From NCBI GenBank assembly GCA_003151615.1, contig PLXZ01000001.1, positions 244,318-308,317 on the forward strand: DNA of 64,000 bases, written 5' to 3'. This DNA is from Candidatus Tayloriibacteriota bacterium. Its GTDB lineage: Bacteria > Patescibacteriota > Minisyncoccia > Phycocordibacterales > PALSA-1337. The notes below the pieces were generated by a model. The model had not been told where the DNA came from, ran no database searches, and worked only from the letters and a program-made list of their open reading frames with translations. This document shows, one piece after another, positions 18,574-33,548 of this stretch; positions within the stretch are counted from its first letter, which is position 1; each line of letters starts with the position of its first letter. The position numbers and the translations under genes were made by a program.

Positions 18574-18602
18574 TTGACAAATAACACAATATGTGATATT
18601 AT
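18574..18602 (+). promoter_or_regulatory. consensus sigma70 promoter upstream of cas1
   Basis: TTGACA-17 bp-TATTAT, 32 bp upstream of cas1 ATG. Confidence 0.6.
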
Positions 18603-18633: not shown

Positions 18634-19677
18634 ATGGACCTTCTTATCGACACCTATGGAACGAAAATCGGAGCAACGGGTGAACGCATTGCCCTTACTT
18701 TTCCCAACGTAAAGGAAAAGAAAGAATATCCGATTCATCGTATTGACAAAATTCTCATCCTTCGTGCCGGTTCATTGTCGACTGACGCGGCAAAATTGGC
18801 ACTCGATCATGACGTTGACATTGTATATCTCGGCTCGTTCGGCAAACCGATCGGCCGTTTGTTTTCGAGCGAACCAAAAGGTCTTGCCGGCCTTCGCCGT
18901 GCCCAGCTTGAAATCTCAAATTCTGAAAAGTCGCTCGAAATTGCAAAAATTCTCGTAAAGGGGAAGTGCACCAACCAAATTTCATACATTCGCAGTCTTG
19001 GCCATGCGCATAAAAAAGACTTCAGCAGGGAAATTCTCCAGATGGAAAGCATTTTAAAAACCATTGAACCTTTGCCGAATATTGAAAAAAGCAAGGAGCA
19101 GCTTCTCGGAATAGAAGGATACACGGCCGAGCGCTATTTCAGCTGTCTCAAAAAACTTCATACATTTTCAGGACGAAAACCGGAGGCGCGCGACAAATTC
19201 AACAGTGCCCTCAATTACGGTTACGGAATGCTTTACAATGAAGTTGACCGGGCGTGTCTTTATACCGGCCTTGATCCGAATATGGGTCTGTATCACAGCG
19301 AACGATATGGCAAGCCTGCGCTTGTCCTCGATCTCGTGGAGGAATTTCGCGTGCCGATCGTCGACTCGGTCGTATTTCCGCTTTTTTTGGAAAAGAAAAT
19401 CACCCAAAAAGGATGTTTTGATAAAACCGGACCCGGAGAATATCAGTTATCGCAGAAAGGGAAGAAGTTTTTGATTGAAGCGGTTGTGAATCGCCTCAAT
19501 GAAAGCGTTGTCTGGAACGGCGACGGCAAACGCTACAGCCTGAAGACGGTAATTGAAAACCAGGTTCGCGGCATGGCGCGGCACTTTATGGGCAAGGAAG
19601 AAAAATATATTCCGTTCGACATGGCGGAAATGCTTCAGCTCCGGCCGGAAGTTTTGGCTAAAAATTCGCATGAATAA
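18634..19677 (+). CDS. cas1: CRISPR-associated endonuclease/integrase Cas1
   Basis: LLGIEGYTAERYF (catalytic Glu region); NSALNYGYGMLYNEVDRACLYTGLDPNMGLYHSERYGKPALVLDLVEEFRVPIVD (Cas1 His and Asp/Glu metal-binding motifs). Confidence 0.9.
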   Translation: MDLLIDTYGTKIGATGERIALTFPNVKEKKEYPIHRIDKILILRAGSLSTDAAKLALDHDVDIVYLGSFGKPIGRLFSSEPKGLAGLRRAQLEISNSEKSLEIAKILVKGKCTNQISYIRSLGHAHKKDFSREILQMESILKTIEPLPNIEKSKEQLLGIEGYTAERYFSCLKKLHTFSGRKPEARDKFNSALNYGYGMLYNEVDRACLYTGLDPNMGLYHSERYGKPALVLDLVEEFRVPIVDSVVFPLFLEKKITQKGCFDKTGPGEYQLSQKGKKFLIEAVVNRLNESVVWNGDGKRYSLKTVIENQVRGMARHFMGKEEKYIPFDMAEMLQLRPEVLAKNSHE

Positions 19678-19996
19678 CTTCCCGATAATTACTTTGGTCA
19701 CATGGGAGACGCGTAATTGGCGGCATAATGATAAAGCATTGGTCTGGTGCAAAAATTACGGACTCAAGCCGATCACACGTACGGTTTATGTCGGAAAATT
19801 ATATGGTAAGGAGCGGATGCTGCTTCAGAAAAAGTTCCAGTTGGTTTTCAACAAAAAAACCGAGAAGTTCGCATTTATAGGCCTATGCCAATCATGCTTT
19901 GCCGCGGCTCGAATCGATGATACCATTAAGTGCAATGCGGAGCATATTTCAAACTTTGAACTCATTCAATTTCCCGAAATAGCCAATAAACGCTAG
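19670..19996 (+). CDS. cas2: Cas2 (108 aa), start overlapping cas1 stop (ATGAATAA)
   Basis: MNNFPIITLVTWETRNWRHNDKALVWCKNYGLKPITRTVYVGKL… fits the Cas2 beta-alpha-beta pattern. 8-bp cas1/cas2 overlap. Confidence 0.6.
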   Translation: MNNFPIITLVTWETRNWRHNDKALVWCKNYGLKPITRTVYVGKLYGKERMLLQKKFQLVFNKKTEKFAFIGLCQSCFAAARIDDTIKCNAEHISNFELIQFPEIANKR

Positions 19997-19998
19997 CT

Positions 19999-20035
19999 CC
20001 TGCATAATAGTGTCGCAAAAAGGAGATTGTGCAAC
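19999..20035 (+). repeat. array repeat R1
   Basis: Exact 37-mer. Confidence 0.95.
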
Positions 20036-20057
20036 CAATTCTATCAAGACCGTTACT

Positions 20058-20276
20058 ATGGGAAAAAAACGCAACTGCTTCTCCTTGTCTGATGCCAACA
20101 TTGAAAGGCTTATCTCGTTAGGCTTCGAAATAGAGCACATTTTCCATAAACCACAGGATATCGAAGCTGTGTTTTCCGAGTCCGGGGAACTTATTGTGAC
20201 CCAAGCCAGAACGATAACTGTATTACCTCCAAACTACAAATCTGCCGGAACAGCCGGAAAAACCGCGAATAACTAA
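20058..20276 (+). CDS. small hypothetical protein in segment S1 (72 aa)
   Basis: ATG 20058 (MGKKRNCFSL…). The ORF-track ORF starts inside repeat R1. Confidence 0.3.
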   Translation: MGKKRNCFSLSDANIERLISLGFEIEHIFHKPQDIEAVFSESGELIVTQARTITVLPPNYKSAGTAGKTANN

Positions 20277-20301
20277 CAAATACTAAACACCAAACCAAAC
20301 T

Positions 20302-20883
20302 ATGAATAACCAACAAAAGTCTATTGTAATAATTGATTTCATCAATGAAATCATTGACTCAAAGGGGAAGCTCGCCGGCAAAGGCTATGCTGCATTTGAT
20401 GCGAAGCATGGGACTTTGGACAATGTAAAAAAACTCCAAGAATTTGGCCGAAGAAATCACATTCCAATTTTATTTGTCCGAGTGGGTTTTTCTTCTTCCT
20501 ATGTAGAGCATCCGGAGAACTCCCCGTTATTCGGAGGAGCAAAGAAATTCGGGGCGTTGCAACTCGGAACTTCGGCAACTGAATTCCATCCAAAAGTTGC
20601 CCCGATCTCGGGCGAAACCATTATTACAAAACATCGTGTTAGCGCATTTTACGGAACCTCGTTGGAATTAATTTTGAAGAATCTTCAAGTTAAAGAAGTT
20701 CTTCTCGCTGGCGTGGCGACTGATTTAGCGGTTCAGGCTGCGGCTCGAGATGCACATGATCGCGATTTTGCCGTCACAGTTGTTTCCGATTGTTGTGCAG
20801 CGGCAAATGAGGAAGATCACGAATTATCTATCAAGACAATTGCTAAGATCGCAAAAATTATAACGCTCAGCGACTTGACGTAA
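20302..20883 (+). CDS. isochorismatase-family cysteine hydrolase (S1)
   Basis: IVIIDFINEI…VATDLAVQAAARDAHDRDFAVTVVSDCCAA: isochorismatase/PncA-like fold with catalytic Cys. Confidence 0.75.
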   Translation: MNNQQKSIVIIDFINEIIDSKGKLAGKGYAAFDAKHGTLDNVKKLQEFGRRNHIPILFVRVGFSSSYVEHPENSPLFGGAKKFGALQLGTSATEFHPKVAPISGETIITKHRVSAFYGTSLELILKNLQVKEVLLAGVATDLAVQAAARDAHDRDFAVTVVSDCCAAANEEDHELSIKTIAKIAKIITLSDLT

Positions 20884-21073
20884 CTCGAATTTCCGTTTTG
20901 TAGGAATGTCATCGCCTCCTGACCATATATTTTGGCCATGGACACTACTCAAATAGCTTTAATTAGAAGCATACCGGGCGGTAATATCATTGTTCCGGCC
21001 AACGACCATTGGCCGGACGCTCCTCGTGGTATGCCCTCCGGATACCACCAATCAATCATCCAAGGGAATACGC

Positions 21074-21110
21074 CCTGCATAATAGTGTCGCAAAAAGGAG
21101 ATTGTGCAAC
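21074..21110 (+). repeat. array repeat R2
   Basis: Exact 37-mer. Confidence 0.95.
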
Positions 21111-21294
21111 CAAATAAAACTTCGGTGACTCCATCCGTTGCAAGTTTGGTGAGGATGCGTTTGACTTCAGGCAACGGAGTCGGTGTTGCCTTTTCAAAAA
21201 GAGGATCAGCAGAATAGCAAAACGAACATTTCGCCGCGCAGCGAGTGCTGAAGTGCAGCGCAACGAAATCAAGATGAACTTTGTCGCCACTCAT
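21111..21294 (-). pseudogene. radical SAM protein, N-terminal ~60 aa only; cut at repeat R2 (S2)
   Basis: VALHFSTRCAAKCSFCY (CX3CX2C) …GVTEVLFGCT, then the frame runs into the repeat. Confidence 0.5.
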
Positions 21295-21300
21295 AAAATC

Positions 21301-22041
21301 TCATAGGCCGTTGTATTCAGGATTGCTTGGAGTGAGCACAAGCGACCGAACGTATGAAAATTCTTGACCAAGAATAAATTCAACAGCCTTGGCTAAATCT
21401 TTTGGATGTATCGCGCTATTTCCTTTGGAATTTATAAAGTCGGCGTCTGAAGTTCCATATTCAATATCGGCAGCAACGATGCCAGGACAAAGGTTGGTGG
21501 TTTTAATTCCTAATTTTGCAATTTCCGTTTGCAGAGCCGCTCCAAGACCATGCACAGCATATTTGGCAGAAATATAGGCTGACGGGCCAGTCATCACATT
21601 GTGCATTGGAAAACCCCAGTCTGCTACAATGTTAATAATACGCGCGTCTTTGCTATGTTTGAGAAAGGGGATTGCCTGACGGATCACATCAGCAGTTCCT
21701 ACGACACTGATTCGGAAGAATTCGGTGAGAGCATCACCGTCTATTTTAACAAGCTCGTTTTCCATCTTGCCGAATGCATTGCTAATGAGAACATCAATAA
21801 CATTGGTTTTTAATGACAACTCCTCAAACATTATTGAAATGCTTTTTGTATCTGCCAAATCGCAACGAAGAAGTGTAAAATCAGCAGACCCAAGCCCCTT
21901 TGCAAGGGCGTCCAGTTTTTTTTGATCACGGCCATGCAAATAAAGAGTGAAGCCGAGTTGAGCGAAGTGATGTGCCAAATAAGTTCCGATGCCAGATGTT
22001 GCACCAGTAATTAACATTTTCTTTTTCATCATAAAATTCAT
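21301..22041 (-). CDS. short-chain dehydrogenase/reductase (SDR), intact (S2)
   Basis: MLITGATSGIGTYLA (TGxxxGxG)… SAYISAKYAVHGLG (YxxxK). ORF extends to 22134. Confidence 0.8.
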   Translation of the reverse strand: MNFMMKKKMLITGATSGIGTYLAHHFAQLGFTLYLHGRDQKKLDALAKGLGSADFTLLRCDLADTKSISIMFEELSLKTNVIDVLISNAFGKMENELVKIDGDALTEFFRISVVGTADVIRQAIPFLKHSKDARIINIVADWGFPMHNVMTGPSAYISAKYAVHGLGAALQTEIAKLGIKTTNLCPGIVAADIEYGTSDADFINSKGNSAIHPKDLAKAVEFILGQEFSYVRSLVLTPSNPEYNGL

Positions 22042-22283
22042 TTTTCTAAAATTACGTCGCCATTGAAATACGTTGTCTCCATTATATCCAACTTTTTTAG
22101 AATGTAAAGGATGGACTTGTATTGTGGCTGGCATTTTGGCAAAAATTGCTGTTGCGATATAAAAACACCATTCATCAATGCTTATCAGGGAATTCGAGCC
22201 TTTTTTGAAGTGAGCGTATATGAGTGCGGCTGCTCGTTCCGCTTCGTAGCCGTAGGTTTTAACTTCGTCTCCGTCTCCACGCT

Positions 22284-22539
22284 TTAATACACTTTAACAG
22301 CTAACGGCACAGCTCGTGATCTGGACCTGAATAATTTTCCAGGCTGCCATTGCCAAACGTTTAGTTTCCAAGCGGTAGGTTGCCCGGATGAGAGTAGCAT
22401 TAAAGGGGCGGCTATACGGGCTTTTTTAGACCGTGCGATCCGATGTAAAGTTTGAATGTCTTTTGCGCTCAAATTGGGCAATATTTGCCTTGGATGAGAA
22501 TGCCAATCCCCTAGATATGTCCATTTGCGACACGATGAC
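22284..22539 (-). pseudogene. JAB/MPN metalloprotease C-terminal fragment, N-terminus removed at repeat R3 (S2)
   Basis: GDWHSHPRQILPNLSAKD = HxH-x8-S-xx-D JAMM-like motif; upstream part replaced by repeat sequence. Confidence 0.45.
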
Positions 22540-22576
22540 CCTGCATAATAGTGTCGCAAAAAGGAGATTGTGCAAC
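22540..22576 (+). repeat. array repeat R3
   Basis: Exact 37-mer. TTTGCGACAC at 22524-22533 is an inverted copy of repeat positions 11-20. Confidence 0.95.
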
Positions 22577-22655
22577 CAAATTTGACGGTGCGGATTCAAG
22601 GGGCGATTGGCCCGAGTTCAGTCCAAATAAAATAACAACTTTGAATCGAATCCGT

Positions 22656-23528
22656 ATGACATCATATACTAGAACAAAAAGTATCAGCTCGGATCTTGCC
22701 GATGGTTATGAGAATCTTCGAATTGCATTTGAAAAGCTGGGAGTAAAAATGGACTCTCCATCCATGGACGGCTTCCTGCGAAGAATTTTGTTCCCAGACG
22801 GCAGAAAGATATTTTTCACCGCGAATGCACTTCCATTAAATTGCGCCTCAGCGGTATCACTGGCACATGACAAATTAGCAACATATCAGGTTCTTATTGA
22901 AGAAGGCATTGCTATTCCAAAAGGAATCGCCTTTTTTGCTAGCGAGTTTCATCGTCGTCAAACACAAGCAGAACCTCAATTACTTCTCGAAAATTTACCT
23001 TCAGCAATCCTCGAACACTTTCCGGACATTACAGCGGCGAATTTTAAAGTGATTATTAAACCCGGACAGGGAAGGTGCGGCTATATGGTTAATATCTGCA
23101 AAACTCTTTTTGAAATCCAGTCATTCGCGAGAGATATTTTAACATCGTTTCATTATGGCTTAATCCAAGAATACATAAATGGGCCAGAGTATCGTGTTGT
23201 CATTTTGGATGAAAATCCCATTATCATATATCAAAAATGTTTAAGCCGTCTTGAAAAGGGGGAGAATGATAACCCCGTGCGTGGTGATACTGGCATTTCT
23301 ATTGAACTGGCAAAGGCACCTTTTGAAGTCATCGAAATTGCAAAGAAAGCTCATCGGGCTCTTGGCCTACGGTTTTCAGGTATAGATGTTTGTCTCCCTC
23401 AAAATATTCCGCCAGCAATAGTATTAGAAGTCAATTCGAGTCCTGGTTTTGATGCCTTGGAAGACGATTTTAATTTTGACGCGGAAAAATTAGCGGGTAT
23501 AATTGCAAAAGCGGTGCTTGCCACTTAA
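22656..23528 (+). CDS. ATP-grasp domain protein (RimK/glutathione-synthetase-like) (S3)
   Basis: FKVIIKPGQGRCGYMV…EYRVVILDENPIIIYQK…SGIDVCL…VLEVNSSPGF. Start at ATG 22656. Confidence 0.65.
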   Translation: MTSYTRTKSISSDLADGYENLRIAFEKLGVKMDSPSMDGFLRRILFPDGRKIFFTANALPLNCASAVSLAHDKLATYQVLIEEGIAIPKGIAFFASEFHRRQTQAEPQLLLENLPSAILEHFPDITAANFKVIIKPGQGRCGYMVNICKTLFEIQSFARDILTSFHYGLIQEYINGPEYRVVILDENPIIIYQKCLSRLEKGENDNPVRGDTGISIELAKAPFEVIEIAKKAHRALGLRFSGIDVCLPQNIPPAIVLEVNSSPGFDALEDDFNFDAEKLAGIIAKAVLAT

Positions 23529-23566
23529 TTTGTGTTAAAATTGTGCAAGTTTAGCTTCAAATTCTT

Positions 23567-23935
23567 ATGACGAATCAAAACCATAACATTCCTCGATTAA
23601 ACCTTGTTGCCATTCGGAGCCATCATCTTCAACTTTCTGTCCAGTTTTACTCGCTATTGGGACTGATTTTTGTGAAGGAGTGCCATGGAAAAGGACCTGA
23701 ACACTATTCTGCAAATAACGGTTCTTATGTTTTTGAAATATATCCTTCTAACGGTTCCGCGTCAGTTGAAAATGTTGTGCGCGTTGGGTTCTACATCAAA
23801 CACTTTAATGAGATTCTTGACACGCTGAACAAAAATGGGGCAATCCTACAGGTGCCGCCAAAAATTTCTCCGTGGGGAAGACGAATGGTCGTGCTTGATC
23901 CAGACAACAATCGTGTCGAGTTAATAGAAGAATAA
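23567..23935 (+). CDS. VOC/glyoxalase-family protein (S3)
   Basis: beta-alpha-beta-beta-beta module pattern (HLQLSVQ…WGRRMVVLDPDNNRVELIE). Confidence 0.55.
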   Translation: MTNQNHNIPRLNLVAIRSHHLQLSVQFYSLLGLIFVKECHGKGPEHYSANNGSYVFEIYPSNGSASVENVVRVGFYIKHFNEILDTLNKNGAILQVPPKISPWGRRMVVLDPDNNRVELIEE

Positions 23936-23945
23936 TCGTTTTGTC

Positions 23946-24634
23946 GTGAAATCGCATTGCAATCATGATTATGATGTCCTTGTAGTAGGTGCTGGCCCAG
24001 CCGGTTTGACTATAGCAAACCTTTTAGCCAGGACAAGTTTGAAATTTACCATTATCGAAAAAGAGACTTCTGGCCAAAGGCCAAGCCGAGCGACCGGTTT
24101 ACAACCCAGGCTTTTAGAAATCTTCGAATATATTGGCATCAAGGATCAGGTCATTAAGCGAGCTATCACACTGAAGGGAAGCCAGATATTTGTTGATGGA
24201 AACCAAACTGCCACGGTGTCCTTTTATGATCCAGTTACTAATTCGCACTCGCTTTCTTTAGATCAAGGTGTAATCGAAGCAATGCTTGCCGCAACCTTTC
24301 AGAAAGGTGGAGGCGTCATCGAGTGGGGCAAGCGTCTTGTGGGTCTACGACGGAAAAATGACCGCTGGATGGCAGATATTGCGACAACGATTCCCTCCCT
24401 TGAATATATTACCGCAGACATTATCATTGCATGTGATGGAGGCAAAAGCACTGTGAGAAAATTTGCAAACATTGAGTTTGTCGGGGAAACGTATTCAGAG
24501 ACTTCATTTATTTCTGATTGTCGCATCAGTTCCGATCTCAAGCCACAATATGTTTGCTTTTTATTTTCCAAAGAATATAGGCTCGTGTTAGTTCCATTCT
24601 CTCAGAGTAAATACAAAGTCAGTGGTGGTATGCA
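23946..24634 (+). pseudogene. FAD-dependent monooxygenase, N-terminal ~230 aa; 3' end cut at repeat R4 (S3)
   Basis: YDVLVVGAGPAGLTIANLLAR (GxGxxG FAD fold)…DGGKSTVR; frame continues into the repeat (…HLHNSVAKRRLCN). Family normally ~400 aa. Confidence 0.6.
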
Positions 24635-24671
24635 CCTGCATAATAGTGTCGCAAAAAGGAGATTGTGCAAC
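24635..24671 (+). repeat. array repeat R4
   Basis: Exact 37-mer. Confidence 0.95.
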
Positions 24672-25224
24672 TGGGCATGACAAGGCGAATCTGCTCGGTT
24701 CGTTGCTGACAACACAATTTCAACTTGGCGCAATGGCGCGGGCGAACCGGCCAGAGGAGGAACGTCGTGATTTTTATCTCTTCATTGACGAATTTCAGAA
24801 CTTTTCGACCGATGCTTTTGCTTCGATTCTGGCCGAAGCCCGCAAATACCGCTCCTGTCTTACGCTGTCACACCAATACATTGACCAGTTGCCGCTGCCG
24901 ATCCGGCAGGCGGTTTTTGGCAATGCCGGAACTCTGATTTCATTTCGCATCGGCAACACCGATGCCGAGGTGATGGAAAAGGAATTCGGCGGCGCATTCC
25001 CGGCGGCTGTGCTCGTTGACCTTGACCGCTATGAGGCGGCGGTGAAGTTGCTTGAAGACGGAATGAACCGGGAACCGTTTCGGGCGAAGATGCTGCCGCC
25101 GCTGGAAAATCGCGTTGGCCGGAAGGACAAACTCATCACACTGTCGCGCGAGCGGTTTGCCATGCCGCGCGCGAAGATTGATGAAAAGTTGAAGCGGTGG
25201 ATGGATTCGATGGTTGCTCAATGA
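24672..25224 (+). pseudogene. FtsK/HerA/TraG-superfamily ATPase C-terminal fragment; 5' end missing at repeat R4 (S4)
   Basis: Walker-B-like LFIDEFQNF then …TLSHQYIDQL…FGNAGTLISFRIG; no N-terminal Walker A; begins at repeat. Confidence 0.45.
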
Positions 25225-25236
25225 CAGAGTGTTTAT

Positions 25237-25797
25237 TTATTCATGGCCGAAGCAAAGTTGTTTCATGCCATCCCAAGCGTAAACCAATGCTGATATTACC
25301 GTGCAAACCGCGCACACAAGGAACCAATGCATATTAAGACTTCGATCCCATTTCAACAAAATCAAAAAAATAAGAATCATTTGTGACCCAGTCGCAATTT
25401 TCCCAATGATGTGTGGATTCACTGAAACCTTTCCGACAATCGTGCGTATAATTGTAAAACCAACGAGTAGTAACAAGTCCTGTCCGATTATCACACCAAA
25501 GAGCCAGAGCGGAATATAGTCTAAATAAATACCGTGATAAAAGCTCAAGATGATAATACCTACCGCAAGTAGCAATTTATCCGCAAGCGGATCAAGGATA
25601 GCCCCGATTTCGCTTTTCTGATTGAAGTGTCGAGCAATAAACCCATCCATCAAATCCAAAATTAATATGGCTATTAAAGAGGCTATTGCCAATACATGAT
25701 AAATATTTTCTCCATAGAAAACATAACAAATCAGTCCGATGGAAAAATATGGTATCAGTAAAATGCGCAAAATGGTGATTTTGTTCGCAGTCGTCAT
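25237..25797 (-). CDS. CDP-alcohol phosphatidyltransferase (S4)
   Basis: DLMDGFIARHFNQKSEIGAILDPLADKLL = D-G-x2-A-R…G-x3-D-x3-D motif; multi-TM. Confidence 0.7.
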   Translation of the reverse strand: MTTANKITILRILLIPYFSIGLICYVFYGENIYHVLAIASLIAILILDLMDGFIARHFNQKSEIGAILDPLADKLLLAVGIIILSFYHGIYLDYIPLWLFGVIIGQDLLLLVGFTIIRTIVGKVSVNPHIIGKIATGSQMILIFLILLKWDRSLNMHWFLVCAVCTVISALVYAWDGMKQLCFGHE

Positions 25798-25970
25798 GGT
25801 GTTACACGACCCTCTTATACTACCAATTGTTAATGCCATGATTGTTGAAATAATAGCGTAAACATTCAATTGCAACAATAGTAGGCCGAACTTTCTACCT
25901 TTGTAAAAGAATGCGCGACTGGCTTGCCGCAAAGCGCAAACCTTGACGCCTACCGTGACTGCCTGGCATC

Positions 25971-26143
25971 GTGCAAAATGGCGCGATGGAATCACGTCTG
26001 CCCCGTTTCAACCGCGCGCCCATCGTTGCCCCCATGCAGCTTGAGGAGCGCGACCGCCAGATCATCCGGCTCATTCACCGGCATCGTTTTCTCCGTTCCG
26101 ACCACATTGTTTCGTTCATCGGCGGCAGCCAGCAGCAGATTTT
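25971..26143 (+). pseudogene. N-terminal fragment of a winged-helix-like protein; cut at repeat R5 (S4)
   Basis: …LEERDRQIIRLIHRHRFLRSDHIVSFIGG then the frame enters the repeat. Confidence 0.3.
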
Positions 26144-26180
26144 CCTGCATAATAGTGTCGCAAAAAGGAGATTGTGCAAC
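26144..26180 (+). repeat. array repeat R5
   Basis: Exact 37-mer. Confidence 0.95.
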
Positions 26181-27162
26181 AACGCAATAGAGCCTGGGTC
26201 GAGCCAATTACCAATGCCGTAAGTATAGTCACCAATACCATGCCTGCCAGATTTACCTTGATAACAAATAGCAAAAGGACGCAAATCCAAATGACTATGC
26301 ACCAAGAGAGAATCCTAATTGTTCCCCGCTGCGCCGCCGCCCGGCACATGAAATAGGTGAATGGAAACGCAAGCAATTGAACACCGAGAAGGAATCCGCC
26401 AATGACACTTGTGGAAAGTTTCAATTCCTGTGAAGCGTAAAGTGCGGTAAAAGAAATGACAGCTCCTATCGTATCAGCAATTAGGAAGTAGCCCAACAAC
26501 AAGCCGATGCGATCCCTATTTAACGCTGCAAACATCTCACGAACAGTTATTCTAGGCCGCCCGCGGGCTTTCAAAAGCGGTCGCCGGAGCAAGATCAAGG
26601 CAAGGACTCCAAAAAAAGAATAAAACAGGGACGTAAACAAATAAGGCAGTTTTGAATTTAATCCGAAAGAATTTTGCAAAAAAAACACTACCATAAAACA
26701 CAGGATGCCGCCTAAATAGCCAAACCCCCACGCAAAGCCCGAAAAAGATGCCTTGTCCTTTCCAGTGACAAGGCTATTTAGCAATGAATTATAAATGTTT
26801 CCAGTCAGATAAAAAAGAGCGTTTGCAACAATAAATGCACCCACAATGTGCCAGTAAGATTTACCTATAACGAGAGACAGGGCTAACCCTGAAATAAAAG
26901 AGACGGCGGCTACAATTGAAAAAACATTCCATCTGCCGTTTCGATCAGCCCATCGGCCTGCAAATGGTCCAGCAAGAACAGCAATTAGCGCCGATGCTGA
27001 AAGCAAGATGCCCCATGACAAATCACTGTTTGTTCCCGGCTTGAAAACGAACTGGTAAAGGTAAAGCGGGAACAAATATGCATGAAATATGAGCGTGAAG
27101 GCCGAGCTGGCAAAATCAAACAGGCTGTATGCAACCAGCGGCTTGAGGTTGCTATTGTGCAT
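26181..27162 (-). CDS. MFS transporter whose C-terminus runs into repeat R5 (probably 3'-truncated) (S5)
   Basis: 11+ TM helices; the last residues (…TISFLRHYYAG) are the repeat translated. Confidence 0.55.
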
Positions 27163-28177
27163 CGTAAGGATGATACCAGAAATCCTCCTGCACGATAAGA
27201 TGAACCAGACACGAAAATTGCATTTTTACATCTGCTGGCAGCGGCAAAAGTGAAATACATTCTTCAACTGTTGCCTCCGCTTGTGTCAGTGTATTCAATG
27301 CGAATTCGCGGACATCTTTTGTCCAGATTTTCTCAAGAAGTTTTAACCACTGGTCGCAAGTCAGCATTCGTTGATCCAGTTCTGTGTTAATATCCGAGGT
27401 GCCATGAAGCCGAAGGTAAATAGCCAATGGAAAGGAAAATGTGATGCGCCAAGAATCGCCGGCGGCGTGCCGTTTGCGAAGATTGTCAGGCTGCAAATCA
27501 TGATAGTCGTTTGAAAGTTGATAGAGTTTTCCCATGGCATGACCAAGTTTTTGAAAGCTGTCACCGAGATCGTTTCGGTTTGCAATCACGGCAGCGGAAG
27601 CAAAACTATACTCGAACATTGCGCTGGTTTTTTGATAAATTTGCTCGTTGTATCCCTTGCATATCCATTTGTTTATTGGTTCAACCATTAGGACATCATA
27701 CATCTCGCCGATTGTTAGCTGGCGATAAGTCTTGAGAAGTAGCTTGAGTATTTCTGGTTGATCTATGACTAAATTTATTGCTTCAGCACATAGAAAGTGC
27801 GCTTGAAGGGCTGAAGCCGGGGTTCCTATATTTGCTTGAGATGATTGGTGGCCATGCCTCACATCATCCCCGTCCAATATATCATCCACCAATATGGAGG
27901 CGGCATGGCACATCTCAATGCTTAAGCAGATGTCGAGAAGCATTTTTTCAGGAAGATTTCCAGCAATGTTCGTCGCAGTTTTAAGAAATAAGTAAGATCT
28001 GATTTTCCTGCCCTTCTCAATTCTTTTCAAAATTTCACTTCCCAGAAAAGTATCCGAATAAAGGTCTGCTATTCGCTTGGCAAGCTCTCGGTTAAGTGAA
28101 ACACGAAACTGCCCTAAATGCTCTACGCACGTCATGGTTTCGGTCGTAAAATCTTTTTGTGTTTTGGTTGATGTCAT
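27152..28177 (-). CDS. polyprenyl synthetase (trans-isoprenyl diphosphate synthase) family (S5)
   Basis: FARM LVDDILDGDDVRHG and SARM-like GKLYQLSNDYHD. Confidence 0.7.
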   Translation of the reverse strand: MTSTKTQKDFTTETMTCVEHLGQFRVSLNRELAKRIADLYSDTFLGSEILKRIEKGRKIRSYLFLKTATNIAGNLPEKMLLDICLSIEMCHAASILVDDILDGDDVRHGHQSSQANIGTPASALQAHFLCAEAINLVIDQPEILKLLLKTYRQLTIGEMYDVLMVEPINKWICKGYNEQIYQKTSAMFEYSFASAAVIANRNDLGDSFQKLGHAMGKLYQLSNDYHDLQPDNLRKRHAAGDSWRITFSFPLAIYLRLHGTSDINTELDQRMLTCDQWLKLLEKIWTKDVREFALNTLTQAEATVEECISLLPLPADVKMQFSCLVHLIVQEDFWYHPYDAQ

Positions 28178-28188
28178 AAAATTTATAA

Positions 28189-28794
28189 TTAAGGGGATTC
28201 GGCAGGCTTTTTGCGTTCTGTAATACTAATCAAGAAATGTTGAATTGCCCAACCGATTGAGCAGCCAACTATTGAGCTAATCCAAATAAATAATTCTCGC
28301 CCCCAGTCAGGAGTATAGCAAACCATGATTAAAGCAACAATTGCCACAGAAAGTGCGGCTATGAATTTAATTCTCGGTGAACGCGGCACAATAGTCGCCA
28401 CTGGAAACAATACCAAATATGCAGAACCGTAGAGACTTTTATTTAGACCACCCGTGTGGGCTGTCCACCAGCCAAATATCGATACGGTTTCGATAAAAAA
28501 CAGGACGTTCAAGAAGTCTCGAAGTTTAATGCGTTGATTGAAGTAAATGGCAGCCACACCGGTTGTGGCTTGGAAGATTAAAAACAATGCTTCATGACCG
28601 TGGCCAGTAACTAAATTATCCAGCCACGGCGTGCATATTGATTTTGGCGGAGAAATTCCAGCAAGCCCCGTGTTTTCTCCAGCAAATACTAGCAAGCAAA
28701 GGATTCCATCAGCAATGAAAATGAAAAGTGTCACCCAGACCGGATCGAGTGATTCATTTCGGTTAGACACTGTCATACAGGAAATCAATGCCAT
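28189..28794 (-). CDS. integral membrane protein (201 aa) (S5)
   Basis: Six hydrophobic helices; co-oriented with the prenyl synthase. Confidence 0.5.
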   Translation of the reverse strand: MALISCMTVSNRNESLDPVWVTLFIFIADGILCLLVFAGENTGLAGISPPKSICTPWLDNLVTGHGHEALFLIFQATTGVAAIYFNQRIKLRDFLNVLFFIETVSIFGWWTAHTGGLNKSLYGSAYLVLFPVATIVPRSPRIKFIAALSVAIVALIMVCYTPDWGRELFIWISSIVGCSIGWAIQHFLISITERKKPAESP

Positions 28795-29053
28795 CAGACA
28801 ATACGGAGGTCAAGCATTTTGTATTTTTTGATTTTATATTGCAACGGCACACGTTCTTTTTGGTGAAAGCTTCTGCTTTGATCTGCAAAAAGTCGGAGGT
28901 GGGCAGCGGCTATTTTGGCGCATCACCTCTTATTGCTGAACTGCCGGAGCCGGAGTTTGCCCAATCACCCCCTGAATGCGAACCGTCAAATTTGACACCC
29001 CGCTTTGAAGCTGGGCTAAAAGTTTATCGTTCATATCGGCGATTTTTGATTTG

Positions 29054-29090
29054 CCTGCATAATAGTGTCGCAAAAAGGAGATTGTGCAAC
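29054..29090 (+). repeat. array repeat R6
   Basis: Exact 37-mer. Confidence 0.95.
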
Positions 29091-29184
29091 CCCCCCGACT
29101 GTTGATTATCCAACTGTTTTGGAAAGCAGTATTCTTAATAAAAATGGAGGCAAAAGTTCAATAGGATGTTGTCCAACGAAATGA

Positions 29185-29583
29185 ATGAAAAAGATTTTTA
29201 TAGCCATTATAGTTACATCTTGGCTCGTAATTTTTGCCTTGGGAATAATTCTGTCGCTGGCTACGCCGCATTATATGCAAATGAGTGCGGGAACGATAAA
29301 AGCCAAAAAAGTAAGTATAGAAGGTCAGCCTTTTATCAGAATTGATGGCGAAGCGATGAATTATTTGGGACAGTTTCAGTTGATAAACGTGGATTGTGAT
29401 GATTCCAGCAAGCGAATCACGGTCACTTGTTGCATTATTTATAAGAATCCATTCAGCAAAATTGTGTTAGGTGATGGTTGGCCGGTTTTTTGCCCACTCG
29501 AAGGTGCAAAGCCTGGAAAATACTCCGTGGTTTATAAAAGTTCAGAAGGAGAACAGACAGCCGGGACATTTGATGTCCCGTAA
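29185..29583 (+). CDS. small secreted/anchored protein, paralog A (S6)
   Basis: Signal anchor; shares NY(L/F)GQ(F/I)Q(L/S)INVD…KYSVVYKSSEGE(Q/T)TAGTFD(V/I)P with the next gene. Confidence 0.55.
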   Translation: MKKIFIAIIVTSWLVIFALGIILSLATPHYMQMSAGTIKAKKVSIEGQPFIRIDGEAMNYLGQFQLINVDCDDSSKRITVTCCIIYKNPFSKIVLGDGWPVFCPLEGAKPGKYSVVYKSSEGEQTAGTFDVP

Positions 29584-29620
29584 TCTGCTTTCCAATTGAC
29601 TGCCCAGTGAAACCGTCAAA

Positions 29621-30025
29621 ATGAAAAAGAGATTGTTAGTAGCGTTCGTTTTTACGATTTTGACTTTGATTATCATTGCCGCAGGAGTTGTCCTTCGACT
29701 TGCCACGCCCGCAGAATGGCCAATTCAGGCAGGAACATTAAAAATTGAAAGCTTTAAGATTGGAGATCAGCCATTCGTGATGATAGAAGGGCAGCCGATG
29801 AATTATTTCGGACAAATTCAATCAATCAATGTTGATTTTGACGGAACGAGTAATCGCCTTATTGTTAGCCGATGTCTGGTTCGATGGAATCCATTCAACA
29901 AAATTATTGTAAATAATCAATGGCCCGTCGTTTATCCTCTTGATGGCATAAAAGCAGGTAAATACGCCGTCGTCTACAAAAGCACAGAAGGCGAAACAAC
30001 AGCCGGAACTTTTGATATTCCATAA
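29621..30025 (+). CDS. small secreted/anchored protein, paralog B (S6)
   Basis: Tandem paralog of 29185-29583. Confidence 0.55.
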   Translation: MKKRLLVAFVFTILTLIIIAAGVVLRLATPAEWPIQAGTLKIESFKIGDQPFVMIEGQPMNYFGQIQSINVDFDGTSNRLIVSRCLVRWNPFNKIIVNNQWPVVYPLDGIKAGKYAVVYKSTEGETTAGTFDIP

Positions 30026-30415
30026 CCAAAACAAGTTTTCAATTGACTGCCTACCTCAATCGCCGATAAATGGAACACTCCCGATGAGTATCACCGTCAA
30101 GTTATAGGAGGGTTGCGGCTAGGATTATTCCGAATCCACACTGACCGGACGGTTGTTTTGAACAGTTTGCGCAATTATGGTGAATAAATCGGACGCAATG
30201 TTGCGATAGTAGTTGTGCATTGAAAATAAGAGTCCTCCATGATTGCTTCTCCGGTTTTTTGGTAAACGTCGCTTTAATGTTTTCCGCCGTCATATAACGT
30301 GATGTAATCCTTCTGTTTTTTTGATCAAACAATTCTCCACTTGCCATCGACGCCGTTGGCATATCGCAGCAACCCCAAGTTCCCATCCTTAACCGTAAAT
30401 AACACGAGAGCAACT

Positions 30416-30540
30416 CACCAGAATCGCCCCTTTTTCATGTTGCCGCTTCCGGCAATTCTGCCCGTCTTCATCGAAAGGCTGCGGGGAGATACGCTTCAGG
30501 GTGGCAGTTCATTTCAAACCAACAACCAAAGGAGAAAACT
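30416..30540 (+). promoter_or_regulatory. 125-bp structured leader (copy A) upstream of DUF1281-like gene (S6)
   Basis: ~85% identical to 32103-32232; contains hairpin TTGCCGCTTCCGGCAA and a conserved GGGTGGCAGTTC block before the RBS. Confidence 0.5.
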
Positions 30541-30978
30541 ATGCCCAACTGGTGCAACAACAAGCTCGTCGTGCTTGGACCCGACGAGGACGTTGAACGG
30601 TTCAAGAAAACAGCCATCGGCAATTCGCCGTGGCACACGAAAGAAGAAAAGAAAAGCGTCCTCAACTTCCACAGCCTCGTGCCCGTCCCGCCGGAGATTG
30701 TATCGGCTGGCTATGGGGAGGCCGGTTACGAATGGGAACGGCAAAACTGGGGCTGCAAATGGGGCGCGTGTCATACCCGACTGGTGGACGGACGGAAAGG
30801 CCACCTCGAATACAGCTTCGAAACCCCGTGGTGTCCGCCCATTCCGTTTCTCGAAAAGCTGGGACGGGAGTGGCCGATGCTCACGTTCCTCCTCGACTAC
30901 GAAGAACCGGGCATGAGCTACAAGGGCATCGCCAAAGTTCATGGCGAGGCCGTTGAAGATCATTGCTTCGACCTCTGA
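30541..30978 (+). CDS. DUF1281-like plasmid leading-region protein (MPNWCNN N-terminus) (S6)
   Basis: MPNWCNNKLVVLGPDEDVERF… From memory, this N-terminus matches a family common on conjugative plasmids. Confidence 0.5.
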   Translation: MPNWCNNKLVVLGPDEDVERFKKTAIGNSPWHTKEEKKSVLNFHSLVPVPPEIVSAGYGEAGYEWERQNWGCKWGACHTRLVDGRKGHLEYSFETPWCPPIPFLEKLGREWPMLTFLLDYEEPGMSYKGIAKVHGEAVEDHCFDL

Positions 30979-31007
30979 AACACAAACAACCAACAGAAAG
31001 GAAAATT

Positions 31008-32087
31008 ATGAGTGCAGTCATGGAATCAAAAGATCAAGTCACCCTGTATTACCGTGGAGGTTCATCAGACAAGGTGTATCAGGCCGCGATTGAACCGAGG
31101 GGCGACGAGTTCGTCGTCCACTTCGCCTACGGACGGCGCGGGTCAACATTGACGACCGGGACGAAGACAAGTTCACCAGTGGACTATGACACGGCGAAGA
31201 AAATCTTCACCAAACTCGTCAGCGAAAAGAAGGCCAAGGGCTACATCGAAGGCGAGAACGGCACGCCCTATCAACACCATGAGCACACGGACAAACAGGC
31301 ATCAGGCATTTTGCCCCAATTGTTGAACGCCATCGAAATGGCCGACGTGGAGAAGTTCCTGCACGATGACGCATATTGCGCCCAGGAGAAATTCGACGGG
31401 CGACACATCCTCATCCGCAAGCAGGACGAACACGTCGAGGGCATCAACAAGAAAGGATTGCTGGTCGGATTGCCGGAAACCGTGTCAGACGACATCCGCA
31501 ACCTGTCCGGCAGCTTCATTCCCGACGGTGAATCCATCGGCGATGAGTATCACGTCTTTGATCTCCTCGAATGGAACGGCGAGAACTTGCGTCCGTTGCC
31601 CTACAGGAAACGGCGCGCTCACCTGATGGAATTGCTCTCCGGTTCGCAGCTTCAGTTCATCAAGCTGGTCGGGACGGCGTTCACGACGGCGCAGAAGCTT
31701 GAACTGTGGCACCGGTTGAAGTGGGAAAACCGCGAGGGCATCGTGTTCAAGCGGCTGGACGCGCCCTACACGCCGGGCAAGCCCAACAGCGGCGGGCCGC
31801 AGTTGAAATTCAAGTTCACCGCCACGGTGTCTGCAATCGTTGCCAAAATCAATGTCCAGCGCAGCGTGGAGATCAGTTTGTTCAAGGGCAGGAGCTTGAT
31901 TTCGTGCGGCAACGTCACCATCCCGGCCAATCACGACATCCCCACAGTGGGCGCTGTCGTGGAGGTGCGGTATCTCTACGCCTTCAGGGAAAGCCATTGT
32001 TTGCACCAGCCGGTGTATCTGGGAATCCGTGATGATGTTGAACCCGGCGAGTGCATTGTCCAGCAGTTGAAATTCAAGGCGGAGTAA
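31008..32087 (+). CDS. WGR domain fused to ATP-dependent DNA ligase (S6)
   Basis: WGR (VTLYYRGGSSDKVYQAAIE…FVVHFAYGRRGSTLT); ligase adenylation motif KxDG (EKFDGRHILI). RBS AAAGGAAA before ATG 31008. Confidence 0.7.
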   Translation: MSAVMESKDQVTLYYRGGSSDKVYQAAIEPRGDEFVVHFAYGRRGSTLTTGTKTSSPVDYDTAKKIFTKLVSEKKAKGYIEGENGTPYQHHEHTDKQASGILPQLLNAIEMADVEKFLHDDAYCAQEKFDGRHILIRKQDEHVEGINKKGLLVGLPETVSDDIRNLSGSFIPDGESIGDEYHVFDLLEWNGENLRPLPYRKRRAHLMELLSGSQLQFIKLVGTAFTTAQKLELWHRLKWENREGIVFKRLDAPYTPGKPNSGGPQLKFKFTATVSAIVAKINVQRSVEISLFKGRSLISCGNVTIPANHDIPTVGAVVEVRYLYAFRESHCLHQPVYLGIRDDVEPGECIVQQLKFKAE

Positions 32088-32093
32088 AATCAC

Positions 32094-32232
32094 AGGGGCG
32101 ATTCACAAGAATCGCCCTTTTTTCATGTTGCCGCTTCCGGCACATCTGGCCGTCTTCATGGAAACGGCACGGGGCGATACGATTCAGGGTGGCAGTTCCT
32201 TTCAATAAACCAACAACCACAGGAGCATCACA
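32094..32232 (+). promoter_or_regulatory. terminator hairpin plus 130-bp structured leader (copy B) upstream of ardC-like gene (S6)
   Basis: GGGGCGATTC-ACAA-GAATCGCCC+T6, then the same TTGCCGCTTCCGGCA hairpin and GGGTGGCAGTTC block as copy A. Confidence 0.5.
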
Positions 32233-33090: not shown

Positions 33091-33548
33091 AAGACTTCAA
33101 TCCGAAGGAATTCAAGGTCGTCGCCTTGCGGGAATGTCCGGTGCCGGACGAGATGAAAATCTGTGCGGAACCGCAGCAGGTCGTGGATTATTGGCGGATG
33201 CACATTGCGACACATCCGTATTTCAACCCGGATTGCGAGTGTTTCGTGGTGCTGCTTCTAAACATACGCAGGCGGGTCAAGGGGCATCATCTGGTGTCCA
33301 TCGGAACGATGGACACCATCTTGGTGCATCCGCGCGAGGTGTTCAGCGTGGCGGTTGCGATGAAGGCGGCTTACATCGTGCTCATTCACAACCACCCATC
33401 GGGTGACCCGACGCCAAGCGACGCGGACATCAAGGTCACGCGCGATTTGATTCGCGCCGGCCAGTTGTTGAAAATCGAAGTTACGGATCATGTCATTATG
33501 GGAAATCCTGAATATTCCTCGTTGCGAGGGTTGGGATATTTCTTTTAG
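33087..33548 (+). CDS. RadC-like JAB domain protein (DUF2466) (S6)
   Basis: VLIHNHPSGDPTPSDADIKVT JAMM motif; start overlaps ardC stop. Confidence 0.8.
   Translation: MKDFNPKEFKVVALRECPVPDEMKICAEPQQVVDYWRMHIATHPYFNPDCECFVVLLLNIRRRVKGHHLVSIGTMDTILVHPREVFSVAVAMKAAYIVLIHNHPSGDPTPSDADIKVTRDLIRAGQLLKIEVTDHVIMGNPEYSSLRGLGYFF

Follow-up and report, generated by a model that had tools for sequence, protein, structure and literature searches.

How did fragments of unrelated genes come to lie between identical copies of one short sequence? In the 64-kb stretch of DNA analyzed here (the window), the 37-nt repeat CCTGCATAATAGTGTCGCAAAAAGGAGATTGTGCAAC is present between positions 19999 and 37782 in ten exact copies (none expected by chance), all on the + strand and with 0 mismatches, while no degenerate copies above chance level were detected across the entire 64 kb. 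The repeats (R1–R10) separate nine segments (S1–S9) of 254–5947 nt (Table 1), and R10 is followed by AT-rich non-coding DNA and then by a MarR-like gene (37964–38425). A previous sequence-only reading covered 21052–29105, i.e., R2–R6, and thus a part of the larger array, which comprises ten repeats and not five or six.

The cas1–cas2 module adjoining the array

Directly upstream of the array lies a cas1–cas2 pair, the stop codon of cas2 being 2 nt from R1; this context, absent from the sequence-only reading, is regarded by us as decisive. The catalytic residues of Cas1 (E161/H221/D233-E236) are intact and are invariant in nine members of the family, and its best PDB match is the Cas1 protein 4n06 (E 5e-32), with IEG/H/DLxE aligned. 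The divergent Cas2 matched nothing in Pfam or NCBIfam, and a PDB profile search retrieved only two weak matches with uninformative depositor names, 3exc (E 0.43) and 2i8e (E 1.3), both of which we take to be Sulfolobus Cas2. Comparison of a 7-member family profile with one built from 15 bona fide Cas2 proteins (all PF09827) gave an hhalign probability of 97.7% (E 1.9e-12); the Asp of the canonical Y-D-I is replaced by Glu (W-E-T).

No AT-rich leader is present between cas2 and R1. The GCT before R1 recurs 5' of the repeat next to cas2 in almost every family locus listed (GCC in L004/L005), but not ahead of the internal repeats in the window; judging from this position, it may serve as a leader–repeat junction motif. 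Since no terminator-like site was found between cas2 and R1, read-through into the array is plausible, and the array is probably transcribed in this way from the cas promoter. Neither effector nor recombinase/integrase genes were found among the ORFs of the 64-kb window scanned with Pfam.

Table 1. Features of the module and the array (positions in the window).
Feature	Position	Strand	Remarks
Candidate promoter	18574..18602	+	sigma-70-like, TTGACA-17-TATTAT, TG-extended; upstream of cas1; consensus match only
cas1 (347 aa)	18634..19677	+	PF01867, E 7.6e-68, model positions 1–281/283
cas2, divergent (108 aa)	19670..19996	+	ATG overlaps cas1 stop
GCT	19996..19998	+	candidate leader–repeat junction motif, immediately 5' of R1
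R1	19999..20035	+	exact match
S1, 1038 nt	20036..21073
S1 PPDK_N	20037–20276	+	C-terminal fragment, cut at R1
S1 isochorismatase	20302–20883	+	complete
S1 190-nt tail			50-codon open frame cut at R2
R2	21074..21110	+	exact match
S2, 1429 nt	21111..22539	-	all genes minus-strand
S2 radical-SAM	21294→21111	-	first 61 codons, cut at R2
S2 SDR	21301–22134	-	complete
S2 JAB	22539→22284	-	C-terminal fragment, cut at R3
R3	22540..22576	+	exact match
S3, 2058 nt	22577..24634	+	includes 18 C-terminal codons of 'gene X' (…NLTVRIQGAIG… to the stop)
S3 ATP-grasp	22657–23528	+
S3 glyoxalase	23567–23935	+
S3 FAD-monooxygenase	23946–24634	+	codons 1–229 of ~371, cut at R4
R4	24635..24671	+	exact match
S4, 1472 nt	24672..26143		segment R4–R5
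S4 T4CP/HerA-like ATPase	24673–25224	+	last 183 aa of ~940 aa, cut at R4
S4 CDP-alcohol phosphatidyltransferase	25237–25995	-
S4 putative HTH-like	25971–26143	+	N-terminal fragment, 57 codons, cut at R5; by sequence reading
R5	26144..26180	+	exact match
S5, 2873 nt	26181..29053	-	all genes minus-strand
S5 MFS transporter	27162→26181	-	without C-terminus
S5 polyprenyl synthetase	27152–28177	-
S5 membrane ORF	28189–28794	-	201 aa
S5 second 'gene X' homolog		-	last 40 codons, cut at R6; basis includes inverted repeat I1
R6	29054..29090	+	exact match
S6, 5947 nt	29091..35037		includes two paralogous small ORFs
S6 WGR + ATP-dependent DNA ligase	30963–32087
S6 ArdC	32233–33090		anti-restriction
S6 RadC	33087–33548
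S6 AAA kinase-like	34404–34970
R7	35038..35074	+	exact match
S7, 1403 nt	35075..36477		206-codon frame open from R7 (35077–35697, +)
R8	36478..36514	+	exact match
S8, 940 nt	36515..37454		DUF6082-like frame open from R8 (36516–36944, +)
R9	37455..37491	+	exact match
S9, 254 nt	37492..37745		33% GC; shortest segment
R10	37746..37782	+	exact match; last repeat

Genes cut at the repeat borders and their possible sources

The proposal that ORFs end or begin exactly at the repeats, which cut through genes, was borne out, and it holds beyond R2–R5 as well: the PPDK_N fragment at R1 covers only model positions 251–314/328. As had been read from the sequence, the radical-SAM protein at R2 retains the beginning of its domain (Pfam positions 3–52/166, with CX3CX2C present) and the JAB protein at R3 lacks its N-terminus (positions 64–112/114, with HSHx7SxxD present, at a weak E of 6e-4). 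Residues 1–229 of the FAD-monooxygenase, likewise predicted to be truncated, are collinear with a 371-aa homolog, the similarity ending at the junction codon at R4; residue 1 of the TraG/HerA-like ATPase aligns to position 745 of a 938-aa T4CP-like homolog, so that Walker B is retained and Walker A is not. The MFS ORF at S5/R5 indeed reads into R5, its C-terminus being the translated repeat. The 'wHTH' assignment of the N-terminal fragment at S4/R5 found no counterpart in Pfam and comes from reading of the sequence alone, and the 206-codon frame of S7 matches no known family. Genes inside the segments occupy both strands, S2 and S5 being wholly minus-strand, as had been stated.

At 12 of the 18 segment ends, an open frame of 60 codons or more abuts the repeat, the fractions expected being 80% if cut points fall at random in the flanking genome and 20% if the sequence is random; this is in keeping with random cutting of coding DNA. 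The composition of the segments is only moderately atypical (five of nine are outliers), with the 4-mer composition of S6 being the most atypical. The gene set of S6 (ArdC, RadC, ligase) is of the mobile-element type, a T4CP fragment is present in S4, and homologs of ArdC were found in 3154 plasmids (1759 of them conjugative) and 70 IMG/VR contigs; apparently, the fragments derive at least partly from mobile elements.

A near-identical donor was found for none of the segments, the best match reaching 62% aa / 68% nt. In L106, the closest locus of donor type, the ATP-grasp/glyoxalase/FAD-monooxygenase cluster is uninterrupted and has the gene order of S3, and DNA similarity of S3 to this three-gene cluster extends to nt 2057/2058 of the segment. 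The locus contains no copy of the 37-nt repeat; hence the possibility, raised by the sequence-only reading against itself, that donor loci carry the repeat at the same positions did not materialize. A 10.7-kb island of L106, flanked by direct repeats, holds homologs of S3, S4 and S8 together.

Relatives of the locus and its descent from CRISPR

Related Cas1 clusters number at least 120, those that are named being labelled Patescibacteria or Saccharibacteria. In every relative locus fetched, cas1 and cas2 are accompanied by a 37-nt repeat homologous to that of the window, and this repeat begins 2–20 nt past cas2 wherever the junction was read or listed. The repeat occurs once in L001, L004 and L006, twice in L002, L103, L104 and L181, three times in L180, four times in L179 and at least eight times in L105, a spread which, together with the ten copies in the window, resembles that of arrays that grow. 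The 25 spacers seen are of 140–7008 nt (24 tabulated and one of 4242 nt in L181); none of them is CRISPR-sized (~35 nt). Genes are cut at the repeats in L105 (Pkinase, model positions 157–259/263; GntR, 12–64/64; NDK, 57–134/135) and in L179 (Carbam_trans_N, 2–208/346). In different lineages the module is found inside different conserved (housekeeping) operons.

Sister Cas1 proteins of 34–38% identity (38% in L008, 34% in L011) belong to ordinary cas1-cas2(-cas4)-cas12f-like loci with 37-nt repeats ending in …ATGCAAC, ~36-nt spacers and an array period of 73–74 nt. Among known systems, the adaptation module of these Cas12f-type (type V-F-like) loci, found in DPANN archaea and Methanosarcinales, comes closest. 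Shared with these are the intact catalytic residues of Cas1, the Cas2 homolog immediately downstream, and a 37-nt direct repeat of the same orientation and 3' end (…TGCAAC). Since the repeats match in length, orientation and 3' end, these traits are inherited from normal CRISPR; the architecture, recurring across the Cas1 clade, descends from an ordinary CRISPR adaptation module. As in CRISPR arrays, repeats exceed spacers by one, are identical within an array and diverge together with Cas1. In contrast to Cas12f-type loci, the spacers here are very variable in length and include complete as well as fragmentary genes, neither cas12f nor cas4 nor any other effector lies nearby, the leader is missing, the catalytic Asp of Cas2 is changed, and the module is embedded in operons of housekeeping genes.

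Stand-alone adaptation modules (cas1–cas2 ± cas4, no effectors), in which, as here, cas1–cas2 adjoins an array without effector genes, have been noted in CRISPR surveys; the passages devoted to them regard these modules as what remains of ordinary subtypes once the effector has been lost or replaced, and do not address their spacer length (PMC5704561, PMC6452270). No published description of kilobase spacers or of this kind of locus was found in the literature searched.

Probable capture of long DNA and the alternatives

The locus, composed of promoter, cas1, cas2 and repeat array, is probably an adaptation locus that derives from CRISPR, lacks effectors and captures long DNA without a length ruler. 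All tests agree with the earlier proposal that the junctions arose from spacer-like insertion of arbitrary DNA fragments. The insertions would be performed by Cas1–Cas2, presumably at the cas2-proximal end: a DNA fragment would be joined through its 3'-OH ends, which attack both borders of the cas2-proximal 37-bp repeat, and gap repair would then duplicate this repeat. Such an integrase, unlike every characterized Cas1–Cas2, would have no length ruler, and any available double-stranded fragment could be written in. The lack of a ruler would account for insert ends at arbitrary intragenic positions and in either orientation, and the duplication for the identity of all repeat copies. To our knowledge, no characterized Cas1–Cas2 integrates kilobase substrates, whereas casposases do.

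We consider it unlikely that processes other than Cas1–Cas2 capture, e.g., illegitimate or repeat-mediated recombination or chromosomal rearrangements placing genomic segments between repeats, reshaped what had been an ordinary CRISPR array or just one repeat, with cas1–cas2 being a relic. One 7-kb 'spacer' of L179 includes a full-length CysRS gene, and L103 and L104 carry the module on opposite sides of the housekeeping RNaseY–ClpP–RsmE block, so repeat-mediated rearrangement could contribute; furthermore, no strain pair differing by one acquisition was recovered. Against remodelling, however, remnants of ~35-nt spacers occur in none of eight arrays, and the repeats are perfectly identical within each array, while those of different lineages differ by 3–15 nt in a manner tracking Cas1 divergence (Spearman −0.59). 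Moreover, the catalytic residues of Cas1 are invariant in at least nine lineages at 58–87% identity, which argues for selection on activity, and segments lie in both orientations, several being atypical in composition and some carrying mobile-element genes.

Integron cassette arrays likewise hold foreign kilobase segments between copies of one site on a chromosomal platform, and the gene-bearing 0.1–7 kb segments between direct repeats look superficially like cassettes. Insertion of circular cassettes, one 37-nt site each, by a site-specific recombinase is nevertheless very improbable, as the sequence-only reading had also held: no tyrosine/serine recombinase was detected among the window ORFs scanned, and the precomputed Pfam tables of genes within ±10 kb of the relatives' loci listed neither an effector nor a recombinase, apart from one Phage_integrase ~9.6 kb upstream in one relative. 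Integrons possess a tyrosine recombinase, attI/attC sites whose imperfect palindromes vary in sequence, and complete ORFs that share one orientation, whereas here the identical 37-mers have a terminal stem of just 6 bp and are not attC-like, genes are cut at the segment ends and occupy both strands, and many of the fragments are non-functional. No better chance is given to casposon-like or other transposable elements inserted in tandem at a preferred target, with the repeat as their target-site duplication. Casposons combine a Cas1-family integrase, kilobase inserts and target duplication, being a mechanistic precedent for long substrates, and the location of the module in different operons would suit a mobile element; casposon duplications, however, are of ~14–15 bp, and that found here is a 37-bp CRISPR-type repeat. 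Casposases, which are Cas1 homologs, are known to insert long DNA with target-site duplications (PMC6452270). Yet casposons enclose cas1 and polB between terminal inverted repeats, whereas here Cas1 lies outside the inserts, terminal inverted repeats are absent from all 24 spacers inspected (window and relatives), and the inserts, beginning and ending inside unrelated genes, share neither PolB nor any common backbone genes.

A chimeric joining of unrelated contigs at a short common repeat has hardly any probability, even though the repeat lies at or close to the end of several short metagenome contigs (L007, L094). The same architecture recurs in at least eight assemblies that are independent and come from different samples, with contigs of 0.3–1.1 Mb among them, all segments lie between perfect same-orientation repeats directly downstream of cas2, and reads and final assembly k-mers are usually longer than 37 nt. 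No more credible is a regulatory cassette, promoter or Shine-Dalgarno, ahead of genes. The repeat does contain AAGGAG, and its minus strand has a weak promoter score (TGCACA-18-TATTAT), but the flanking genes are truncated and on both strands, in line with the earlier rejection of a promoter or RBS motif, and the −10-like part falls in positions variable among relatives; AAGGA appears inherited rather than adapted, since the ordinary CRISPR repeat of the sister locus L008 has it too.

Returning to the capture of long DNA by a CRISPR-derived adaptation module, such a locus could be a long-homology immune memory or a gene-capture platform.

The repeat array and the adjacent cas1–cas2 module

The 37-nt repeat CCTGCATAATAGTGTCGCAAAAAGGAGATTGTGCAAC occurs in the window in ten copies (R1–R10), all on the plus strand and without a single mismatch, where none is expected by chance; no degenerate copies above chance were revealed across the 64 kb by a scan allowing up to 15 mismatches. 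The sequence-only reading was right that the repeats are real, but the range it gave them (21052–29105) takes in R2–R6 alone. As in CRISPR arrays, identical direct repeats within the ~23–55 nt range lie beside cas genes, with the array starting 2 nt past cas2; the segments between them (S1–S9), 254–5947 nt long, do not conform to the short, near-uniform spacers of CRISPR arrays (~25–70 nt). The only pairing predicted for the repeat, a weak hairpin, has a terminal stem of 6 bp that closes it, and an Rfam scan recognized no CRISPR-DR family in the array, the upstream tmRNA being the sole RNA match. On the minus strand each repeat obtains a weak sigma-70-like promoter score (TGCACA-18-TATTAT), a likeness which is probably incidental, since its -10-like part falls in positions variable among relatives. 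Downstream of the array lies an ORF with no Pfam match, in which a PEP-CTERM-like sorting signal (…PEASTLMSGALVLLPFGIGTLRSFRRK) was noticed by eye.

Coordinates of the repeat array, its surroundings and related features (window positions unless a locus is named)
Feature	Position	Strand	Following segment	Remarks
tmRNA gene and smpB	17653–18587	−		RF00023, E 2e-34 (tmRNA); directly upstream of cas1, divergent
cas1	18634–19677	+
cas2-like ORF	19670–19996	+		108 aa; overlaps cas1 stop
R1	start 19999	+	S1, 1038 nt	exact match
R2	start 21074	+	S2, 1429 nt	exact match
R3	start 22540	+	S3, 2058 nt	exact match
R4	start 24635	+	S4, 1472 nt	exact match
R5	start 26144	+	S5, 2873 nt	exact match
R6	start 29054	+	S6, 5947 nt	exact match
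R7	start 35038	+	S7, 1403 nt	exact match
R8	start 36478	+	S8, 940 nt	exact match
R9	start 37455	+	S9, 254 nt	exact match
R10	start 37746	+		exact match
Promoter-like site in repeat (example)	20033–20004	−
Spacer-initial CAA, S1–S3	20036, 21111, 22577
Partial domain, R1/S1				PPDK_N, model positions 251–314 of 328
Partial domain, S2/R2				Radical_SAM, 3–52 of 166; 61 codons; CX3CX2C present
Partial domain, S2/R3				Prok-JAB, 64–112 of 114; HSHx7SxxD present, upstream Glu absent
Partial domain, S3/R4				FAD_binding_3, 1–220 of 349
Partial domains, R4/S4				TrwB_AAD_bind, 214–287 of 387; TraG-D_C, 2–65 of 126
Gene end, S3	22577–22640	+
Gene end, S5	28934–29053	−
Repeated stretches at paralogous small ORFs, S6	29445–29583, 29887–30025			ORFs of 132 and 134 aa
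Direct repeat, S6	30398–30526, 32086–32214			~130–140 nt
ORF downstream of array	38563–39291	+
Direct repeats, L106	184–241, 10861–10918			58 nt
Module and array, L181	9909–16050
Cysteinyl-tRNA synthetase gene, L179	12093–13502			full length

The ORF upstream of the cas2-like one was identified as Cas1 (PF01867, E 7.6e-68); its catalytic Glu, His and Asp/Glu align with those of PDB 4n06, and E161/H221/D233/E236, as required of a catalytic Cas1, are invariant in 9/9 family members. The cas2-like ORF has no match in Pfam or NCBIfam, whereas a profile of seven family members aligned by hhalign with a profile of 15 bona fide Cas2 proteins (all PF09827) at 97.7% probability (E 1.9e-12), the canonical Asp being replaced by Glu. 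A profile search of the PDB with this protein gave two matches in all, 3exc and 2i8e, which we take to be Sulfolobus Cas2, both with weak E-values and with deposited names that say nothing of their identity. A strong promoter-like site matching the consensus precedes cas1, and no terminator-like site lies between cas2 and R1. The neighbourhood comprises genes of tmRNA/SmpB, NusG, L11, FolD, FtsH and HlyD/MFS efflux. The ORFs scanned in the window include no effector, recombinase or transposase; around the array, none of the scanned ORFs contains a Phage_integrase or other recombinase domain, IntI included; and the precomputed Pfam gene tables of the ±10-kb flanks of relatives list no effector genes.

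Gene fragments at the repeat borders and their possible donors

Genes in the segments lie on both strands, some being complete and some cut. The claim of the sequence-only reading that genes are truncated at the repeats holds for the radical SAM, JAB, FAD-monooxygenase and ATPase genes, each partial at its border according to Pfam or homologs, while the ‘wHTH’ reported at S4/R5 lacks family support. The FAD-monooxygenase fragment is collinear (62% identity) with residues 1–229 of the 371-aa protein P0122, and the similarity ends at the junction codon; the ATPase fragment starts, directly past R4, at the counterpart of residue 745 in a T4CP/HerA-like protein of 938 aa; it keeps Walker B and lacks the Walker A region. 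Of the 18 segment ends, 12 border on a frame that stays open over 60 codons or more, where 80% would be expected from random cuts in the flanking genome and 20% from random sequence.

The gene for P0122 belongs to a donor-type locus (contig L106) with ATP-grasp, glyoxalase and FAD-monooxygenase genes in the order of S3, and the similarity at the DNA level (68%) can be followed as far as nt 2057 of this 2058-nt segment. Presence of the repeat in the donors themselves would speak against capture of fragments at the window locus, as the sequence-only reading had recognized; L106 contains no copy of the 37-nt repeat, and its FAD-monooxygenase gene runs on uninterrupted for 142 codons beyond the junction point of S3. 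It follows that the repeat does not belong to the donor-type sequence and that the junction arose at the window locus. Homologs of S3, S4 and S8 sit together in a 10.7-kb segment of L106, which probably represents an integrated element akin to the donors of these three segments. It is bounded by direct repeats (90% identity) with an internal palindrome and carries HicAB, the S3-like cluster, ThyX, a methyltransferase, a PRTase-CE/ORC-CDC6-like/CARF set and a T4CP remnant ending at the right-hand repeat.

Near-identical donors or protospacers of S1–S9 were not found in the sequences searched (fetched loci, plasmids, phages and IMG/VR): a blastn comparison of S1–S9 with the window flanks and with 105 loci gave no match, the array as a whole matched no public plasmid or phage record by megablast, and IMG/VR held no relatives of the S7 ORF, the S8 ORF or Cas1. 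The sole IMG/VR contig matching the repeat pattern (L108) lacks cas genes, and its GC-rich DNA matches by chance.

Hallmark genes of mobile elements are present in S4 (the T4CP fragment) and S6 (WGR-ligase, ArdC and RadC). ArdC has homologs on 3154 plasmids, of which 1759 are conjugative, and on 70 contigs of viral or proviral origin; they are common in IMG/VR, yet without synteny to S6. S3 and S5 start, in opposite orientations, in the last 18 and 40 codons, respectively, of homologous genes (…SNLTVRIQG[A/V]IG…*), and this common start could mark a favoured site of breakage or entry in a donor element that recurs. The two gene ends share 88% identity over 34 nt and are followed by unrelated gene sets. 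Taken together, the mobile-element genes, the co-occurrence in L106 and the starts of S3 and S5 suggest that related elements were sampled repeatedly. Relative to the flanks, S2, S3, S5, S6 and S9 are atypical in tetranucleotide composition, and no composition gradient along the array was observed. Within S6, the two copies of a direct repeat (81–83% identity) lie on both sides of the ligase gene, and two adjacent small ORFs are paralogs (71% identity).

Relatives of the module and ordinary sister loci

Relatives of the Cas1 protein (55–79% identity) form at least 120 distinct 90%-identity clusters, and those named come from MAGs of Patescibacteria, Saccharibacteria, Parcubacteria or Nomurabacteria; the next-nearest Cas1 in the species-representative genome collection has at most 39% identity. 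Every fetched relative locus contains cas1 and a cas2-like ORF of 94–117 aa, with housekeeping genes around the module, and where the junction was read or listed a homologous repeat of exactly 37 nt begins 2–20 nt past cas2. Four loci (L001, L004, L005 and L006) have one repeat copy and no spacer; two copies enclose a single spacer in L002 (3232 nt; L003 has the same one), L103 (998 nt), L104 (444 nt) and L181 (4242 nt), three copies are present in L180 (1290 and 670 nt), four in L179 (7008, 591 and 756 nt) and at least eight in L105 (213, 2526, 144, 579, 4007, 386 and 140 nt). Altogether, 25 spacers in eight arrays measure 140–7008 nt (median ~1 kb), none being CRISPR-sized. These spacers of relatives cut genes as well, as seen from partial Pkinase (model positions 157–259 of 263), GntR (12–64 of 64), NDK (57–134 of 135) and, in L179, Carbam_trans_N (2–208 of 346) domains. 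The inserts have no terminal inverted repeats (24/24) and no strong end motif. Four of these 24 (S1–S3 and the fourth spacer of L105) begin with CAA, mildly above chance; the triplet resembles the 3' end of the repeat (…GCAAC) and could reflect microhomology, slippage or end preference.

Repeat copies are identical within each array and differ at 3–15 positions between lineages, the conserved positions lying mostly at both ends (CCTGCA… and …TTGTGCAAC); repeat divergence follows that of Cas1 (Spearman −0.59, with pairs not independent). Nearly all cas2-adjacent repeats listed are directly preceded by GCT (GCC in L004 and L005), which is absent 5' of the internal repeats of the window; this distribution hints that the cas2 side may act as a leader, giving the array a putative polarity. 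A metagenome scan with a degenerate repeat pattern yielded 17 contigs, mostly short, with one copy each; cas1–cas2 lies upstream in three of them, and the remaining ones look like array-internal pieces.

The L181 module (Cas1 57% identical), with its repeats and spacer, is situated within the spc ribosomal-protein operon between rplE and rpsN/rpsH, and that of L179, with its array, between ftsI and a Mur ligase gene within the dcw cluster; thus, highly conserved operons are among the sites to which the module moves. Inverted repeats flanking these operon-embedded modules were not observed.

The two loci examined among those with the nearest Cas1 outside the clade, L008 of Methanosarcinales (38%) and L011 of Micrarchaeota (34%), are ordinary: each has cas1, cas2, a CRISPR array and a 544–571-aa protein with a Cas12f1-like TNB domain, and L011 also has cas4. 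The period of their arrays is 73–74 nt, and their 37-nt repeats end in …ATGCAAC in the same orientation as in the window; the window repeat therefore owes its length, its orientation and its 3' terminus to the repeat of a normal CRISPR. Judging from these sequences, the changes relative to an ordinary CRISPR ancestor would be those of spacer length and effector loss. Alignment of the clade with sister type V-F-like Cas1 proteins showed no clade-specific indel that would explain a loss of the length ruler.

Proposed insertion at the repeat and alternative explanations

The best-supported reading is that the adjacent Cas1–Cas2 integrase, whose agency we infer, inserts fragments at the repeat; insertion would duplicate the repeat as in CRISPR adaptation, without a length ruler. 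This reading would account for the perfect identity of the repeats, for a copy number equal to that of inserts plus one, for array size varying between lineages, for arbitrary insert ends and orientation, for the strict adjacency of cas2 and for conservation of the Cas1 active site. Casposases are a precedent for integration of long DNA by the Cas1 family.

The most serious rival is rearrangement in which Cas1 has no part. Two observations hint at it: the full-length cysteinyl-tRNA synthetase gene in the first, 7-kb ‘spacer’ of L179, and the relocation of the module between L103 and L104. Such rearrangement leaves unexplained the identical repeats, the conserved active site and the fragments of mobile-element type. 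That L179 spacer also holds transposase fragments, TauD and two ATP-grasp genes. In L103 and L104 (Cas1 87% identical) the module lies downstream and upstream, respectively, of the RNaseY–ClpP–RsmE block, and either the module moves or a local rearrangement took place around the array.

Other explanations are contradicted by the data. Integron attC sites are imperfect palindromes of variable sequence and delimit complete co-oriented cassettes, whereas here identical 37-mers, which are not attC, separate segments that end inside genes and carry truncated content on both strands; nor was a recombinase found among the ORFs scanned. Tandem insertion of casposons or other transposons disagrees with the lack of terminal inverted repeats and of genes common to the inserts; a casposon, moreover, is bounded by such repeats and carries cas1 with a family-B DNA polymerase gene, while here no PolB was seen and cas1 lies outside the inserts. 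Gene orientation argues against a ribosome-binding or promoter motif, as do the non-conserved promoter-like part of the repeat and its AAGGA part, inherited from the ancestral CRISPR repeat. An assembly artefact is at variance with the recurrence of the architecture in independent assemblies, including contigs of 0.3–1.1 Mb.

Considering these facts, we lean slightly towards the view that a widespread patescibacterial clade possesses a two-protein integrase, Cas1–Cas2 of CRISPR origin, which no longer has length control or an effector and which writes arbitrary fragments of 0.1–7 kb, whole genes of invading mobile elements among them, into one defined chromosomal site of 37 bp, with duplication of the site at every event; this new mode of DNA capture would represent either long-homology immune memory or an integron-like platform of gene acquisition assembled from CRISPR parts. 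The fragments may stem at least in part from mobile elements, and their function may be immune memory, acting via long homology or antisense RNA, or gene capture. Stand-alone adaptation modules are already known (PMC5704561, PMC6452270). The full-text literature searched, which covers few subscription journals, yielded no account of Cas1–Cas2 arrays whose spacers reach kilobase size, and an earlier description elsewhere is possible.

Control over spacer length is considered intrinsic to Cas1–Cas2. If the proposed reading is true, a natural clade storing kilobase fragments would break this rule and would represent a living intermediate that links casposases, with long DNA and a short duplication, to CRISPR adaptation, in which short DNA goes with duplication of the repeat. 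The claim is directly testable with two small proteins and a 37-bp target; the module would amount to a natural integrase that brings kilobase DNA of any sequence to a fixed site, and would thus suggest a compact enzyme for kilobase DNA insertion at a chosen, defined target. Patescibacteria are genome-reduced and largely CRISPR-poor; they would thereby gain an unrecognized route to record or acquire foreign DNA, which would also explain puzzling truncated genes in their genomes.
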